Shown: one piece after another, positions 6,535 to 57,291 of the stretch | Numbering within the stretch: the stretch's first letter is position 1 | Layout: the number at the start of each line of letters is the position of its first letter | Assembly (NCBI GenBank): GCA_964016885.1 | Contig: OZ024746.1 | Coordinates: 9,176,001 to 9,240,000, forward strand | Source of the DNA: Eledone cirrhosa | Taxonomy: Eukaryota | DNA length: 64,000 nt | Direction: 5' to 3' | The notes under the pieces: model-generated | Seen by the model: only the letters and a program-made list of their open reading frames with translations | What the model was told of the DNA's origin: nothing | Databases searched by the model: none | Position numbers and translations under genes: made by a program

Positions 6535-6730
6535 ATAACGAAGGAAGTGCGGTAAGGAACCAGATGGACCATAACGCACCAGAGTACTCAATACTTCAGG
6601 TAGTAGGGTGGGTAATAGGAAATGTTCAAGACCCGAACGACAGAGCTCAAGCCGTTTCAACGGCTGTTTCTGTCCAGAAATAGCCGTCGAAACGGCTTGT
6701 GCTCTGCCGTCGGGGTCTTGAACATTTTCC

Positions 6731-18092: not shown

Positions 18093-18659
18093 AATGTAAT
18101 CTGAGTTTTTCGAATATTAATAATAATATTCAATTCGTTTGCAATTATACAAACAAGCCTCATTTTTAAAGCCATGTCAGTAGAATGAACCCCTCACTCT
18201 CTGTTCTTGTGTTGGCATGTAAACAAATTTCTTTTTCTTTTTTTATTCTTTTATTTTTTTTTTTATTCGAATATGGCAAAGCCGGCCATTGATCGCTCGT
18301 ATACAGGAAATGACTGGTCAGTCTGCTGATACGCAAATCTGGCTGATCAGTGGATCTGATAATATACAAATCTGACTGATCAGCCAGTCTGCTAATATGC
18401 AAATCAGGCCGATCAGTCACTGTATATTTTAGAAAATATCATGTATTTTCACTAGCTCTGACAGTTGGCAGGTGAAGAGTGAACTGTACTGATGAAGGGT
18501 GATACCCGGAAACATTAGTGTCTGCAGTTCTGTTTACATGCCAACACAAGAGCAAGAATGAGGGACTCATTCTACTGACATGGCCTTTAAAATGAGGCTT
18601 GTTTGCATAATTGCAAACAAATCGAATATCATTATTAATATTCGAAAAGCTTAGATTAC

Positions 18660-22165: not shown

Positions 22166-22210
22166 AGTCACTGAAGATGTCACAGAGTGTGTGACGAAAG
22201 GACTATGACT
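22166..22210 (+). ncRNA. Minimal type I hammerhead in a family B element ending at ~22373
   Basis: agtca-CTGAAGA-t-gtcac-agagtgt-gtgac-GAAA-ggac-TA-tgact. Confidence 0.85.
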
Positions 22211-23370: not shown

Positions 23371-23897
23371 TCATTATATGTAAGGATGAAAGGCAAAGTT
23401 AATCCTGCCGAGGTTAACTTTGCCTTTCATCCTTACGGGGTCGATAAAATAAAGTACCAGTAATGCACTGGGTAATTGCTGGCCTTGTGCCAAATGTAGA
23501 AACAATTATATGAAAGGTGGATTGGCAGTATCGGTAGAGGGTCGGACGCCATGTTTTCCAGCATAGTTACGTCCCTTTACGATCTGAGTTCAAATCCCGT
23601 CGAGGTTGACTTTGCCTTTCATCCTTACGGGGTCGATAAAATAAAGTACCAGTAATGCACTGGGTAATTGCTGGCCTTGTGCCTAAAGTAGAAACAATTA
23701 TATGAAAGGTGAATTGGCAGTATCGGTAGAGGGTTGGACGCCATGCTTTCTAGCATAGTTACGTCCCTTTACAGTCTGAGTTCAAATCCCGCCGAGGTTA
23801 ACTTTGCCTTTCATCCTTACGGGGTCGATAAAATAAAGTACCAGTAATGTACTGGCTAATTGCTGGCCTTGTGCCTAAAGTAGAAACAATTATATGA
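23371..23897 (+). mobile_element. Three head-to-tail SINE copies; the first is 5'-inverted and truncated
   Basis: Copies separated by and ending in ATTATATGAAAG; upstream flank is ATTATATG. Confidence 0.9.
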
Positions 23898-24315
23898 AAG
23901 TATCCTGCTGCTCCAAGCTTTTCAGTATTTCTCTTTGTACTCTAGCTTTAGTGCCTTATCATACCTGCTCATAAATCATGTTGTTTACAAAACACGAACG
24001 AGAGAGAGAGAGGGGGTGAGAGAGAACGAACACGAGAGAAAGAGAGGGGGAAACAAGTGAGAGAGAGAGAACGAGAGAGAATAAAAGAGTGAGGGATAGA
24101 GAACGAGAGATAACGAGAGAGAGAACGAGATACTTTGAATCTAAAAACATCCTTTTTTTTTCTCTCTCACTCGTTTTCTGTCACTCTCCTTCTCTCGCTC
24201 TCACTCATTTTCTCTCGTTTTCTCTCTCTCTCCCTTACTCTTTTGTTCTCTCTCGTTCTCTCTCTCTCTCCCTCATTTTCCCTCTCTCTCACTCTTCTTC
24301 GTTCTCTCTCACCCC

Positions 24316-28105: not shown

Positions 28106-30652
28106 TTGAAGCCCTCAGAAAATAGGAGAATACAACCCACCGCCGTCCACCTTTCATGAAGATTCTGATTGTATGCTGCATTACAAAATTGAAGGAGAGC
28201 ATTGCTCATTGACACCTGCCTTGCAGACTCTCGTATCTGTTTCATATTATGGCAATGTGGATTTAATACAGACTAAATTAAAGATAAATTGATCTGCTAG
28301 AAAAATTTCAACCTATCATCTTCAAAATAAGGATGGATACATGTTGTTATAGATGTACAGAAATATGAATGGCCACCACAGGAGTTCATTTGATTATAGA
28401 TCTCTTCTATTGTATCGGGTTTGCAGAGCTAAAGAACAACAATTATGTACCGAAAGCCTATAACATCTAAACCATCAAGACAAAGCTTTTAAAGATATTT
28501 ATTAATATTATCGTTAACGAAGTGTAACTTCGGCTTTAGACCATTAATTTTTATATTTGCAAAACATAGTAACTTTCGCCGAGGGATGCTATACATGATT
28601 GAATTGGTAGGTTTGGTATTTATGTTATAGAACCCAGAGGATTAAATGGATGAGTATGGTTTCTATAGAGATTTGAAATTATAACAGAATATATCGGTAC
28701 TCAGTCGTTTATAACAGTCCATTAGTAATTTTGAATAAGGAAAAGACACGATCCCTGCAAAGAAGCATACATCTGAACTATTATATCATCTATAGCCATT
28801 TTTGTATCACCTTATTATAACTCTATATGATATCTCCGAAGTAATTCATTTCAAAAGATACAAGAATATAAGAGACACTTCTAAGGAGTTACTTGACCTG
28901 CTAGAAATAGCACACAGATGTCTGTAAAATCTATTATTGAAAACAAAATAACATATTGAAGAATCTGACCATAGATACTCTATGTCTAATAAATACCCTT
29001 TGATCATATGTTTGCTCAATCAACGGCAACAACTTCAAAGACAGAAACGAAATGTGGAAAGAAGATTATTTGTTACCGTTCAGTTGAATTCTAATTAAAA
29101 AATCTATCTAATAAATGTTCGAAATCGTTAAATAGTATTGGAAAGTAAACATATGAAGTAGATTGTTCATGGCGTCATCTGGTTATTTCTGGCAAACACC
29201 TCCTGAATTTTGTTTTTAAACATTTTGTTGCTATGTTTCTACAAAAGATACATGTAAAGTAATTTTGAAAATAGCGAAGAATTTTTGTTTATATGGCTAA
29301 ATTTTTCAGTAATAAGCTGGTATTTGGAACATAACTTAACAAAAGTTCTCACTTAAAATTATGACGGGAGACTTTTAGTTAAATATAAAATCTTAAAATA
29401 AACAGCCATGTATCATAACTATGGGCGGTTTCGTGCGGTTTCCTACCTAAATGGTAACAACTTTGAAAATTGAGTATGAACGTCCAACTCGTCGGCAACA
29501 GCGTTATGATAGAAGGATGTACTTACAGCTTAAGTCTAATTAATTAATTTGATTGTAATTATGTATCCTGAAGCAATTGATGCTGTTATTGGTGCGGTTA
29601 GGATTAGCTTCAGGCTGGTCCAACTAGTTCCAGCGCATAAACAAACGTGTTATATCAGTGAACATCCCATCGTATGTGCAGACATGACGTATTCTTCGGT
29701 TTTTGAAAGACAATTGTGTGTGATTTGTGACAAATATGACTGCTGTAACTGCTACTTCGTTTGCTGTCCTTACAAGGGAGACAATTATGGCATCAACTAA
29801 ATAAATAAACATGCAATGGTATGGACTACGAATATTGAATACAGACTAAGTCGAACGGTTCGAGAAAATCCGTTGTGCGTATAAGCTACTTATTATTTTA
29901 AAGAATCACTGCATAATCGTTCTTGTTGCAGCACTTCTACAATGTTTTCTGCGAATTATGATAACACTAATTTCAGTCTTTTGATTTCAACGTCATTCTT
30001 AGTAACACGATCAACAATCAAAGATTTCTTAAGCTTTTGTTTGGATGATTTAAGAAAATAATGGTAAGATTAGACATGTAATATTAGTTCTTATAGAGAT
30101 GTGTATTATATTATTTTGTTTTATTAATTAAAATGGATCATCGTCTTTCTGAAACCATTTCATGCATTTAATGCCGAAGATTAAAACCTACAAAGGATGC
30201 AAAAGTGACATTATTTCTTTCATGGTTCATGCTTTTTTTATTTTTCATGTTATGCAAATATTACGAATCTCATATACTATTTGTAATTACTTTAGGCTAA
30301 ATGGAACATCCTTCGCCGATTACATCACCCAGTCTGGCAGAGTTCGCTGCATCATGAAATAGAATATTAACTACAAAAGAAAATGTAATCTGTATTTCAA
30401 GACTTTAGATATCCGTGTCTCTTGACAGAATTTTATTAATTATATGAGTAACTACTCGAAAACAATTTAGATTTAACACTCAAAAATCTCTAAATGTGAG
30501 TGGAGTAACATCACCAAAATATTTCTCTCTATATATGTTGTTTGTGTAACTGCTGATGCTTTTGTTGTAGCTGTTGCTGTTACGTCTCACACTTGCTTAT
30601 GTTTAAACGACCTCTTAAAGCGACGAAACTCATGGGAAGTGTCTTTAGTGTT

Positions 30653-31051
30653 TTAATAATTATTTCTACTTTTGGCACAAGGCCGGCAATTATCCCAGTG
30701 CATTACTGGTACTTTATTTTATCGACCTCGTAAGGATGAAAGGCAAAGTTAACCTCGGCGGGATTTGAACTCAGACCATAAAGAGCCGTAACTCTTTGCT
30801 GAAAAGCATGGCGTCTGACCCTCTACCGATACTGCCAATCCACCGCCTTTTAATAATTGTTTCTACTTTAGGCACAAGGCCAGCAAATTACCCAGTGCAT
30901 TACTGGTACTTTATTTTATCGACCCCGTAAGGATGAAAGGCAAAGTCAACCTCGGCGGGATTTGAACTCGGATCGTAAAGGGATGTAATTCTGCTGGAAA
31001 GCATGGCGTCCGACCCTCTACCGATACTGCCAATCCACCGCCTTTTAATAA
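30653..31051 (-). mobile_element. Two tandem SINEs of different subtypes
   Basis: TTTTAATAAT present three times (left, between, right). Confidence 0.9.
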
Positions 31052-31169
31052 TAGGAGCTCTAAATATATTGTGTCACCATTTTCCTGATAACAGAAGGCA
31101 GACTTTGCATTCAAAACGCATAAAGACGGAACAGTTTCCATAAAGTATTCTATCCTACACCCGATAAAT

Positions 31170-41199: not shown

Positions 41200-41283
<84 letters not shown>

Positions 41284-41474
41284 CGTAAAATAAGAAAATA
41301 TTTTTTAAAAAAATTTTTAAAAAATTTTTTTACTTACTTAAATTTTCACTCCAACTAATTAGTTTCTGCAATGGGATAAAGACAGTTACATAATCCAACT
41401 GTCGAGAATTCATTGCGTCTTTTTATATGAGCCGCCAGTGTCCGCGCATTGCCTGGAGGCTCAGCTGAGAATAG

Positions 41475-41556
41475 ACTCCCTGATGACGCAATGAATTCTC
41501 GACAGTTGGATTATGTAACTGTCTTTATCCCATTGCAGAAACTAATTAGTTGGAGT
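41475..41556 (+). ncRNA. Type I hammerhead with extended stem II (copy 1)
   Basis: actcc-CTGATGA-c-gcaatg..gacagtt..aactgtc..cattgc-a-GAAA-ctaattag-TT-ggagt. Confidence 0.9.
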
Positions 41557-42029
41557 GAAAATTTAAGTAAGTAAGTTAAAAAATTTTTTTAAAATTTTTT
41601 TAAAAAATATTTTCTTATTTTACGTCTTTTATATTATTGTTCTGCACCCTCCTGCATTGAACCACCTAGGTACTATGACATAACCTGTGTATTTGCTGGC
41701 ATGGACGTACATCTGTGCGTCTATGTTAGTTGATATATTAAATTATCTATATTTATCTCCAAATCACTGATTTGTCGAGCAAACCTGCCAAAACCACTTC
41801 AAAATTTTTTTTGGGGTGTTAGTAGGCGTCAGTCATCTTACCATCCCATTCCTTCTAACTAGCCTCTATGTCACGTGATTGATTCTTTAGAATCGGTCAT
41901 TTGACTGGAAGCAGTGAGAATTTCAGTACATAGAATCCAGTCCTCGCCTAGCTGTTCTTTCTACCGAAGTATTATTTTTATATGAGCCGCCAGTGTCCGC
42001 GCATTGCCTGGAGGCTCAGCTGAGAATAG

Positions 42030-42111
42030 ACTCCCTGATGACGCAATGAATTCTCGACAGTTGGATTATGTAACTGTCTTTATCCCATTGCAGAAACTAA
42101 TTAGTTGGAGT
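42030..42111 (+). ncRNA. Type I hammerhead (copy 2, identical)
   Basis: Same sequence 555 nt downstream. Confidence 0.9.
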
Positions 42112-42300
42112 GAAAATTTAAGTAAGTAAGTAAAAAAATTTTTTAAAAATTTTTTTAAAAAATATTTTCTTATTTTACGTCTTTTATATTATTGTTCTGC
42201 ACCCTCCTGCATTGAACCACCTAGGTACTATGACATAACCTGTGTATTTGCTGGCATGGACGTACATCTGTGCGTCTATGTTAGTTGATATATTAAATTA

Positions 42301-42337
<37 letters not shown>

Positions 42338-42342
42338 GTGTG

Positions 42343-42376
<34 letters not shown>

Positions 42377-42382
42377 TGTGTG

Positions 42383-42495
<113 letters not shown>

Positions 42496-44096: not shown

Positions 44097-44305
44097 TAGG
44101 AGAAAGTATGACCCCGATGGCTGGTAAATAATTATTTATTTACCAGACTAAACAAACTCTTACTTTAGTCCAGAAATAGCTGTCGAGACGGCTTGAGCTC
44201 TGCCGTCGGGGGTCGTACTTTCTCCTATTACCTACTCTACTACCCTAAGTATTGAGTACTCTGGTGTGTTATGGTCCATCTGGTTCCTTACCATAACTCC
44301 TTCGT

Positions 44306-44336
<31 letters not shown>

Positions 44337-44528
44337 AAGGAAGTGTGGTAAGGAACCAGGTGGACCATAACGCACCAGAGTATTCGATACTTTGGGTAGT
44401 AGAGTGGGTAATAGGGAATGAGTCAGGACCCCGACAGCAGAGCTCAAGCCATTTCGGCAGCTTTTCTGGACTAAACAGAAATAGCCGTCGAAACGGCTTG
44501 AGCTCTGCCGTCGGGGTTCTGACTCTTT

Positions 44529-44535
<7 letters not shown>
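44097..44535. mobile_element. Two family A elements tail-to-tail around (TA)n
   Basis: 44097-44310 (+) and 44333-44535 (-); both short arms end at CCTAT. Confidence 0.85.
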
Positions 44536-52057: not shown

Positions 52058-52093
52058 TCTTCTGATGAAGGACTAGCGTCTGAAACGTTAAGA
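52058..52093 (+). ncRNA. Minimal hammerhead (family D)
   Basis: tctt-CTGATGA-a-ggac-tagc-gtct-GAAA-cg-TT-aaga; palindromic AACGTT stem III. Confidence 0.85.
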
Positions 52094-52894: not shown

Positions 52895-53485
52895 TCACTC
52901 CTCATCCTTCTCCCATCTGAAGAAGTATATTTTTAAGCGATGTGTATAGCGTATCGTCATTTCAGCTCTGCTGATGAGCTCGTGGGGTGCTGTTATGATG
53001 TGGTAGAGCTCCATGAGGCAAAGATCACACTTCCTCTGGAAGTTGTACGGTGCATCCCTGCCGACAATATCCCAGTGCCTGGAGAAGCTGATGTTTAAGT
53101 CTTTTAATGATGTGATGTAGTCCGCGAGCGAAGTAGAGTGTCTCAATTTCTTAGTTGTGAAAGAGTGGAGATGTGTTCGAAATCTAATTTTGAACGGCCC
53201 AGAGGTAGCCCCTATATAATGTTTAACGCTATTGTGGCTAGTTACAGTGCACCTATATATAACCCTATCAGTCAAGCAGTATCCCCTAAGGGGGCAGCGT
53301 CCCCTGTCGCGGCAGTTGCAATTTCTGTCGCGGTCCCTTCTAATTCCCACTGTAAGGCTATCATTATTGCTATCTATGTTGTTATCTACGCTCCCGCACC
53401 TGTCGTTAGCACCATTATAACCCACTGCGCGCGGGGTGGTACCATTATTATTCCGCACGTCATGTCCTGCATGTTTCCCTGTCAT
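52895..53485 (-). CDS. GIY-YIG endonuclease domain of a Penelope-like element (relic ORF)
   Basis: VIY...YIG, conserved R and H, CxCx5Cx5C motif upstream and CxxC..E downstream. Confidence 0.85.
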   Translation of the reverse strand: MTGKHAGHDVRNNNGTTPRAVGYNGANDRCGSVDNNIDSNNDSLTVGIRRDRDRNCNCRDRGRCPLRGYCLTDRVIYRCTVTSHNSVKHYIGATSGPFKIRFRTHLHSFTTKKLRHSTSLADYITSLKDLNISFSRHWDIVGRDAPYNFQRKCDLCLMELYHIITAPHELISRAEMTIRYTHRLKIYFFRWEKDEE

Positions 53486-54442
53486 GTTCCGGTTATGCTG
53501 GTTGTGTCTGTGGAGGCTTTTGCCAGCACTATTGGATGCTGCTAGGGAGTCGTTAAGGCCGATATAGTTATTGTCAGGTGTAGGTGCGTCTGTGCTAAGA
53601 TGCTGTGTCTTGGTGATCTTACTGTGATTAGTTGTTCCTATGATGTCTGCTAGGTTAGGAGTAGTAGAGAAGGATATTTTTATATTGTTCCTATTAACGA
53701 TTGTTCTATACCTATGGTTGGGTGGGAAGTTCTTCTCTAAGGCTTAGAAGAATATCCGGGGTATGTTGGAGGCCACACTCCAAGAGTAGGGGGATGGAAC
53801 CATGGGCCGTTACAGTGGAGATTACGTGTCCTTGTACGTTTGCTACGGGTGGTTCCATCAAGGTGACCGTTCTTATGCATGTTAATGCACTGTAGCCCGT
53901 TACGTGCCCCTTTCACTTTATGCTCGGGTGCACTCTTCTTCCTTATTCTATGTTTATGTACAGGAAGATGTTGGTTGGAAGGCGTTGGTAGTAGGCCGTC
54001 GCCTTTGTTGATTTCATAGTAGGGGAATAATTCGAGTAGGCTACAGTGGTCACTGTCACCGGGGTCGTGGTCTTTATTGTGTGGTAAGTTACCTATACTA
54101 TGGCCAGTGTAATTAACATTGTGGCTGTGTTCCTTAGTGCGATTATCTATACTATTATATCCGACTCCTACGAAGTCGCCGCGTGATCGGTTATAGGTAT
54201 GGCTTACTATAACGTTCGTCTTATGAAGGGGGTGGTTTCTGGAGCTAGCCTTAGGGATGTAGGTTAATTCCTCGGTTAAAGCCAGCGCTTATCAAGGCCC
54301 TATTGTAGTAATCTGCCCGTTGGTTGAAGATATCCTCATTGGCGGAGAGCCTCGAGATCCTAGGTGAGATGCTATAGACTAGTTGAGAGTCTGCTTAGGG
54401 TGGTTGGAGGCATAATTAATATAAGAAAGGCTCTCTCCAGGC

Positions 54443-54752
<310 letters not shown>

Positions 54753-56732: not shown

Positions 56733-57291
56733 TTATAGATAAAATGATTTGTGTAGATGAAAGGGTGGATCAGAGAGTGGGATGTATTGGTGGAAGGCAA
56801 GACCTAGAGGTGAAGTGCTAATGGTGGTGATGGGTTCAAATCTGACATTGTTATATACTAGGTTTAATGTTTTCGAAAGAGTGTCGGGAGCGGTGTTGGC
56901 ACGATGCAAACACTTCCGATTTTTTTTATTAAGGAGGTTAAGATTCGAAAAGATTATAGTATAGGTCTCTAGTGGACAGAGGTTACAAAATTTATTAGGT
57001 GGTTTATACGATGCAGCCCTACCTACCACTTCCCATTGAAGTGTATATGATCTATTCCTAGTTTTCAGATAGTGTATGTAGCTAGATAGTGAAATGGAGT
57101 TGGCTAGATTGTGTTTTTTGAAAGAATGGAGGTGTGAGTTGTATCTCGTCTTGAAGCAGTTCGAAGTAGAGCCTATATAGGTTTCAGAAGAGTTGTTAGT
57201 GTTGACCGTGCATGAGTAAATGATGTCCTTTATTAAGCAGTTGTTACTTAAAGGGCAGGTTCTATTTGATCTACAGTTACATTTATTTTGG

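Follow-up and report, generated by a model that had tools for sequence, protein, structure and literature searches.

The available accounts describe the non-LTR retrozymes of animals as non-coding tandem repeats with one type I hammerhead per unit, a G+C content below 50% and a length of 170-400 nt (Cervera and de la Pena 2020, PMC7229834), and a second account gives monomers of 51-972 nt (Li, Clavereau and Pollet, bioRxiv 10.64898/2026.07.22.740005); they are highly self-paired, occur in many dispersed copies and are accompanied by Penelope-like elements (PLEs). As a class they lack LTRs, a primer-binding site and a polypurine tract, cleave themselves, are found as both linear and circular RNAs, and have target-site duplications, when present, of more than 4 bp. 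Copying of the retrozyme circle by a PLE reverse transcriptase, and a dependence of retrozymes on PLEs, have been proposed already (PMC7229834; bioRxiv 10.64898/2026.07.22.740005). Eight of nine Xenopus retrozyme dimers were reported as uncut in vitro (Li et al., bioRxiv 10.64898/2026.07.22.740005). PLE insertions, as described, combine 5' truncation, partial tandems, a head-to-head inverted copy and a tail at one end (PMC8557442, PMC3846280), with (TA)n as the target in the Hydra clade (PMC8557442). In the case of Poseidon, a PLE of Anolis carolinensis that cuts and extends both DNA strands at AT-rich targets and is predicted to act as a dimer, work in vitro has shown that the tail spans the distance from one internal start site to a second one (Frangieh et al. 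2024, PMC11167929). In the accounts available, the mobilisation of retrozymes and the cause of the tandems, inverted arms and tails of PLEs are stated as open.

The insertion described here lies in a window of 64,000 nt from Eledone cirrhosa, the window being the whole stretch of DNA that was analysed, and is one copy of a young, dispersed, non-coding, hammerhead-bearing family, i.e. an animal retrozyme. The kind of element is already known; the present family is a variant of it with an unusually testable mechanism. The features of the insertion are as follows, with monomer positions counted from the base after the predicted cut (41552 = 1).

41202..41277, no strand: left half of the (TA)n target
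41274..41419, minus strand: inverted arm of 146 nt, 0.27 unit (monomer 489-555 and 1-83), with its outward end at site A
41420..42307 (end about), plus strand: forward arm of 1.6 units, 5'-truncated at monomer 424, with its outward end at site B
41475..41556, plus strand: hammerhead 1, type I, predicted cut after 41551
41552..42106, plus strand: predicted 555-nt monomer, cut to cut, non-coding
41618..41662, plus strand: site A, ending in UAUAU at monomer ~83, followed by bulged hairpin A (41640-41662)
41699..41726, plus strand: core of a long hairpin rich in G-U, lying within the A-to-B tail of 118 nt
41740..41780, plus strand: site B, at monomer ~200, followed by bulged hairpin B (41757-41780), a motif common to the candidate partner PLE
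41870..41884, plus strand: conserved motif, presumably E-box-like, monomer 319-333, a possible internal promoter element
42030..42111, plus strand: hammerhead 2, identical to hammerhead 1, predicted cut after 42106
42295..42307, plus strand: terminal site B of the forward arm
42303..42438, no strand: right half of the (TA)n target, interrupted

Most of what the original prediction had read from these letters is borne out. Two identical hammerheads 555 nt apart had been claimed, and a comparison of the window with itself, shifted by 555 nt, gives a match that extends from 41420 to about 41752 and is broken only at 41577 and 41590, both in a region of A/T runs and outside the hammerheads, so that the two hammerhead copies are identical. 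The core CUGAUGA occurs at 41480 and 42035 and GAAA at 41538 and 42093, and the GUU triplets, given as GTT in the prediction, do end at 41551 and 42106, where the cuts are predicted. The (TA)n surroundings and the inverted 5' arm are likewise present as claimed; the arm is complementary to 41485-41634 and lacks the first five core bases, and it therefore holds no third hammerhead. The reading of the insertion as a dimer was right in that the tandem units are near-identical, but the forward part is not a full dimer, its second unit ending ~200 nt past its own cut site. That there is no notable open reading frame agrees with the monomer (G+C 36.8%) read as a circle, which has stops in all six frames and, by eye, no stop-free run of 50 codons; lacking a reverse transcriptase or GIY-YIG endonuclease frame, the 555-nt repeat is a non-autonomous element. 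Hairpin B is missing at the terminal site B because the hairpin sits 3' of that end, and a target-site duplication, if any, is masked by (TA)n on both flanks. The role of the motif at 41870-41884 as an internal promoter element is a possibility suggested by its conservation.

Of the traits listed above for animal retrozymes, one type I hammerhead per tandem unit, absence of coding capacity, low G+C content, high self-pairing, many dispersed copies and co-occurring PLEs are found here. The unit is longer than the 170-400 nt of Cervera and de la Pena and falls within the 51-972 nt of Li et al.; unlike animal retrozymes as described in these accounts, the present family has a strict two-arm layout in (TA)n, a C-A pair next to the hammerhead core and a long stem II that is interrupted by an internal loop. 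In hammerhead 1, stem I is formed by 41475-79 and 41552-56, the core by 41480-86 and GAAA by 41538-41, with six pairs of stem II (41488-93/41531-36) leading to an internal loop and a distal hairpin, and stem III lies inside a 12-nt palindrome (41540-41551). The original prediction had noted the unusual length of stem II with its internal loop, which is seen in both hammerheads, as well as the palindromic stem III. At the stem II base pair adjoining the core, C faces A (41487/41537), a point absent from the original prediction; the same mismatch recurs in 369 of the 372 matches to the motif that the fetched loci contain, a count in which loci that overlap enter more than once, and this makes it a family trait that is kept. 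A literature search for a C-A pair beside a hammerhead core gave nothing relevant, and Rfam at the gathering threshold gave no match in the window, a result that is uninformative for a hammerhead variant with a long stem.

Across nine related hammerheads 93% of the cells in the stems pair, and eight of 21 pairs change on both sides, against one or none in a control with the partners slid along; the structure was written from the window copy, which is thereby favoured in this count. As a folded circle, the monomer exceeds 40 shuffles in stability by ~8 SD (reverse strand, 5.8 SD). Covariation and fold stability together argue that the hammerhead is not a chance motif, and we regard it as probably an active ribozyme, though cleavage may be slowed by its stem III of 3 bp and by the C-A mismatch that adjoins the core. 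The active hammerhead fold lies just 2.8 kcal/mol above the best fold of the free circle, in which the pairs of stem I have a probability of ~0.2. The suggestion that the RNA is viroid-like draws support from size and fold only; RNA-to-RNA replication and a ribozyme in both polarities would mark such an RNA, and a motif scan of the window gave no hammerhead on the minus strand.

Other parts of the window deserve brief mention. Four more short hammerhead-like motifs lie on the plus strand at 18489, 52062, 59080 and 60224, those at 52062 and 60224 being alike; hammerhead-motif matches at 22171 and 37778 look like chance. A small repeat beside TA runs is present at 44171-44225 and 44476-44530, with similar text near 6640, 21270 and 22580, and a 192-nt tandem repeat (2.6 copies, 95% matches) occupies 23401-23900. 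The stretch 30570-31140 is a very high-copy repeat, its summed depth in sequencing run X18 reaching millions as compared with ~15 in the flanks; this run behaves as DNA, with an even depth of ~10-18 over an unrelated stretch.

In the 3.0-Gb genome there are 779 candidate places for the 555-nt unit, and the 39 scored among them contain 229 matches at ~91-100% identity, with full units at 96-100%. A 33-nt hammerhead pattern has 1,944 exact matches genome-wide, which may include close subfamilies, and its reversed control has none; the first 100 matches listed represent ~48 loci by eye, giving an estimate of roughly 900 loci for the copy number that the original prediction had proposed to determine. 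The 38 loci fetched are the best matches to the window and so form a biased, non-random sample; the fetched retrozyme loci hold 1.4-13.8 units each, and an LTR layout was found in none of the 39. Related retrozymes of 507-559 nt, 66-88% alike, form a superfamily (L104, L131, L133, L138, L144, L213, L215) with ends and conserved blocks in common, across which the long G-U-rich hairpin of the A-B tail covaries. One of these relatives, a 522-nt sister family with 2,262 candidates, is 71% identical to the 555-nt repeat.

The ends of the insertions follow a strict rule. Head-to-head pairs of arms occur in 26 of the 39 loci, and each of these pairs combines an arm ending at site A with an arm ending at site B, the two sites being separated by 118 nt; the 13 one-armed loci end at A in 11 cases and at B in two. 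By eye, the fixed A and B ends adjoin (TA)n in 38 of 39 loci, the exception (L058) being irregular. The 24 loci of the sister family behave similarly (12 A+B, two B with an irregular end, six A and four B), such that 12 of its 14 two-armed loci are A+B and none is AA or BB. The arms begin, by contrast with these fixed ends, at scattered 5' positions: an exact start at the cut site is seen in none of 65, for which reason a start of the arms at the ribozyme cut was rejected, and 14 of 65 start within 30 nt of it, where palindromes could aid joining. Overlaps of 2-27 nt at 15 of the 26 arm junctions are possible microhomology, set aside as evidence because alignment edges inflate the overlap. The two arms copy overlapping sequence, and in nine of 26 loci each arm has more than one unit.

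In LINE-1 twin priming, both target ends prime on one RNA and an inverted 5' part results; the present layout differs in that its two start sites are internal and at fixed positions and in that the sequence copied into one arm overlaps that of the other. Of the features of PLE insertions, 5' truncation, partial tandems, a head-to-head inverted arm and a tail at one end are all seen in the retrozyme loci, as is the (TA)n targeting of the Hydra clade (PMC8557442, PMC3846280). There are also differences from PLE insertions as described: there is no open reading frame, the tail is ~118 nt rather than 30-40 nt, and the arm junctions are variable rather than fixed palindromes, so that priming from both target strands fits better than the antisense self-priming put forward in PMC3846280. 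With Poseidon the family has in common two internal start sites, the distance between which is the tail, and AT-rich targets. In the published description of Poseidon, however, the start sites are alike on both strands and the start site is without homology to the target (PMC11167929), whereas here the two strands use different sites, A and B, each of which ends in UAU(AU), in agreement with the target, and has a hairpin of its own after it.

At L036 (3522-3992), ~220 nt of host flank are, by eye, inverted and duplicated around a TA run at the place where an A arm would be expected, and then join the retrozyme arm. A similar unrelated sequence adjoins the retrozyme near monomer 93-120 at L058 (5408-5480) and in the left flank of L111, by eye, i.e. 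in two families; it is possibly another element inserting there.

The candidate partner is a family of PLEs with a 773-aa protein. A PLE that happens to lie in locus L066 has the motif following site B just upstream of its ATG, and the family of this type contains many intact frames of 785 codons (773 aa from the ATG) with 97-100% identity to the query; its divergence between loci is ~0.6%, compared with ~0.9% for the retrozyme, both from best-hit samples, and it is therefore as young as the retrozyme. The protein (loci L240-L258) has RWK, DKT, a CxCX5C linker, CxxC and CxH around the EN end, plus GIY-YIG at the C terminus, and the insertions lie in (TA)n; judged by these motifs and targets, the family is of the Hydra type (Hydra clade). 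Pfam detected no family in either full PLE protein examined. The unit is 3.6 kb (3,603 nt), that of the Hydra clade being generally below 3 kb, and a hammerhead core with a palindromic stem III lies ~150 nt before its site A, in a motif whose stem I, by eye, pairs poorly in the canonical register. Both ends were seen in nine of 20 fetched loci, and all nine are A+B.

In this PLE sites A and B are 113 nt apart, as compared with 118 and 119 nt in the retrozymes, and in PLE and retrozyme alike each site is followed, at a distance of 4-5 nt, by a short helix, then by two bulged bases on the 3' side and another helix. A descriptor of this signal (UAU, 4-5 nt, bulged hairpin) finds only the two ends in the 555-nt monomer and the two in the 3,603-nt PLE and matches at most 1% of 300 shuffles; it was written after these sites were known, and its specificity is to that extent partly circular. 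Site B of the sister family escapes it, as do the two sites of a PLE family with a 927-aa protein, and it has one match in an 859-aa PLE, so the hairpin signal may be clade-wide. When the A-B region was aligned with the 5' regions of four PLEs, only the 773-aa PLE gave an alignment better than all 300 shuffles. Extended homology between the monomer and PLE loci was absent from the 927-, 855- and 773-aa families compared, and the tie between retrozyme and PLE thus rests on signals and spacing; in Xenopus, by contrast, the link to the partner was drawn through terminal-repeat homology (Li et al.). Neither the 927-aa family, of which the window has its own fragment, nor the 822-859-aa families were retained as partners, their similarity not exceeding all shuffles (859-aa best, p 0.05-0.07). 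On balance the evidence favours the 773-aa family as the mobilising partner of the 555-nt retrozyme, if with some reserve.

The minus strand of the window carries fragments of two other Hydra-like PLE families, at 52898-54456 and 56892-57281. The family of the first has intact 927-aa copies (L099, L100) and a hammerhead-like motif with the core CUUGAGA.

Variants among the units bear on the form of the template. Units diverge by 0.35% within a locus and 0.88% between loci, and the two arms of a locus agree at 99 of 100 lineage-site comparisons, permuted arms mismatching at 36%. Seven variants are fixed in all units of a single sampled locus, and three were tested genome-wide. The four genomic occurrences of the variant 403A all lie in L047, where each arm has two. 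Of 460A there are five occurrences in L055, distributed over both arms, and a single one elsewhere; the latter lies in a partial unit that belongs to another lineage and was rejected as a source unit for its different background. Private status was also rejected for 356A, which has 312 matches genome-wide, so that not every seemingly private variant is private, and unit 1 of L034 was dropped as a source of L035, with which it has 183A in common, since another site fixed in L035 differs. A source array for 403A or 460A was not found in this haploid assembly. A variant in every unit of both arms without a source array is what is expected if one monomer was copied repeatedly. Of 173 hammerhead copies, 171 have an intact cut site, and as both exceptions are substitutions, with no indel, the cut-site junction bears no joining scars. 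These patterns point to a circular monomer as the probable template.

A further locus, L259 (G000:C3:218052257-218054079), is a two-armed A+B insertion of a 321-nt piece of the partner PLE that has no hammerhead. Its 321-nt junction occurs six times genome-wide, all in L259, three per arm, from which it follows that concatemers can form without a hammerhead; the PLE machinery seems able to roll small circles, hammerheads being one route to them. Some arrays (L050, L062, L053) contain two- and three-unit repeats, and the arms of L053 differ at two sites; these patterns fit growth after insertion, multimer templates or two RNAs.

It may be asked whether a circle is needed at all. The PLE machinery could copy long uncut transcripts of arrays, with the hammerhead slow or dispensable and uniform sources giving rise to uniform arrays. 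Work on the anole PLE, the main substrate of which in vitro is uncut RNA and whose ribozyme mutants inserted normally (PMC11167929), lends weight to this route, as do the lack of arms starting at the cut site (the 14 close starts fall where palindromes also lie), the two- and three-unit periodicities, the low probability of stem I pairs in the folded circle and the tandems and inverted arms that the full 3.6-kb PLE also forms. Set against it are the fixation of 403A and 460A in every unit of either arm, while the assembly contains no source array for them, and the unique L259 junction, repeated in one insertion only. Moreover, unit-specific variants are common, yet by eye no two of the 39 loci share an ordered series, and families that are 66-88% alike have kept the core and the stems, the latter with compensatory changes. 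Copying of uncut transcripts is accordingly an unlikely account. Spread at the DNA level, whether through unequal exchange or through circular DNA, with the hammerhead simply carried along, is a route discussed by Li et al. (bioRxiv 10.64898/2026.07.22.740005), and local duplications of two or three units are visible here; in their fixed outward ends, their 5' truncation of variable extent, their inverted arms and their choice of TA targets the arrays agree, however, with the autonomous retroelement of the same genome, and the G-U-rich, strand-biased, covarying structure points to selection at the RNA level. For dispersal this explanation is largely refuted and we consider it very improbable, while later growth of single arrays may plausibly occur in this way.

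The identity of the mobilising enzyme can be questioned separately. It is conceivable that a Hydra-type family outside the sample, with a terminal repeat homologous to the monomer, is responsible, and that the 773-aa family merely carries signals common to the clade: by eye, a UAU is followed by similar hairpins in two other families (927 aa and 859 aa), insertions of the 927-aa family likewise end at two sites in (TA)n, here with a distance of 162 nt, and the PLE candidates beyond the scored set number tens of thousands. Matching spacing, a hairpin at both sites and similarity above all shuffles are nevertheless combined only in the 773-aa family, which is also as young as the retrozyme, and when hammerheads combining the same stem III with a shorter stem II were sought, 39 places emerged, of which 25 were fetched and 24 proved to be retrozyme relatives, with no PLE terminus among the 25. 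An unsampled mobiliser is for these reasons a minority possibility, and a rather unlikely one. That the repeat is merely the terminal pseudo-LTR of a long coding PLE was named in the original prediction as what would speak against an independent element, and the layout, a hammerhead followed by two ends ~120 nt apart, is indeed that of a PLE terminus. But the arrays run to as many as 13.8 consecutive units, PLE-like coding pieces in the fetched retrozyme loci lie hundreds of bases from the element, and the exact hammerhead matches and dispersed arrays attest independent copies; the pseudo-LTR reading is refuted for the loci examined and can hardly be entertained more generally.

That the element is retrozyme-like and moved by a PLE reverse transcriptase, as first suggested, is thus supported by its dispersed copies and PLE-type ends, and mobilisation of the PLE type is almost certain. 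The best explanation overall, which we hold to be likely, is that the retrozyme is pasted into TA microsatellites by a Hydra-type PLE enzyme working on a self-cut, re-ligated RNA circle. The process would begin with transcription of a multi-unit array, from which the hammerheads would cut out the monomer and a host ligase would close the circle, as may be supposed from known retrozymes. A PLE protein, likely as a dimer, would then bind the bulged hairpins 3' of A and B and cut both strands of (TA)n; what is observed of this step is the fixed ends, the common hairpins and the TA targets. A single RNA would be primed by one DNA end at A and by the other end at B, and both cDNAs would run round the putative circle for 0.1 to several turns; here the A+B rule and the single haplotype common to both arms are observed. 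Joining of the two cDNA ends would finally give the head-to-head arms, the layout of which is seen directly. Since the hairpins lie 3' of the start sites they would be lost from each insertion end, and only tandem or circular templates would stay competent.

Whether the window locus itself releases monomers is doubtful. With two passages over the cut site, its forward arm might in principle give rise to a monomer. But the arm starts at monomer 424, just 60 nt upstream of the first core and downstream of the promoter-like motif, and read-through from the left would include the 146-nt inverted arm, which pairs with a hammerhead; on both grounds the locus is more likely a product than a source.

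A bolder version of the preferred explanation can be put forward tentatively, at somewhat less than an even chance. In it the PLE enzyme is two-headed, each half gripping its own hairpin on a common RNA and starting 4-5 nt upstream of it, from one strand of a cleaved TA repeat, and both halves roll RNA circles; the retrozyme would be an independent circular parasite, mimicking both hairpins as well as the distance between them, and not a deletion derivative of its host, and the genome would record the process molecule by molecule. The open-access main texts consulted gave no account of a strict A+B rule, of a hairpin common to retrozyme and PLE or of variant-based evidence for rolling copying, although supplements may bear on these points.

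If true, the two-headed model would explain together the tails of PLEs, their inverted arms and the need for tandems, and the genomic record of copying would include a one-off circle without a ribozyme. The family offers a young, named partner with intact frames, two defined start sites and a candidate protein-binding hairpin common to parasite and partner, and it allows rolling-circle copying to be tested on genomic sequence. Tool builders, too, would have an interest in a reverse transcriptase that needs two short signals to place a circular RNA in a defined microsatellite.
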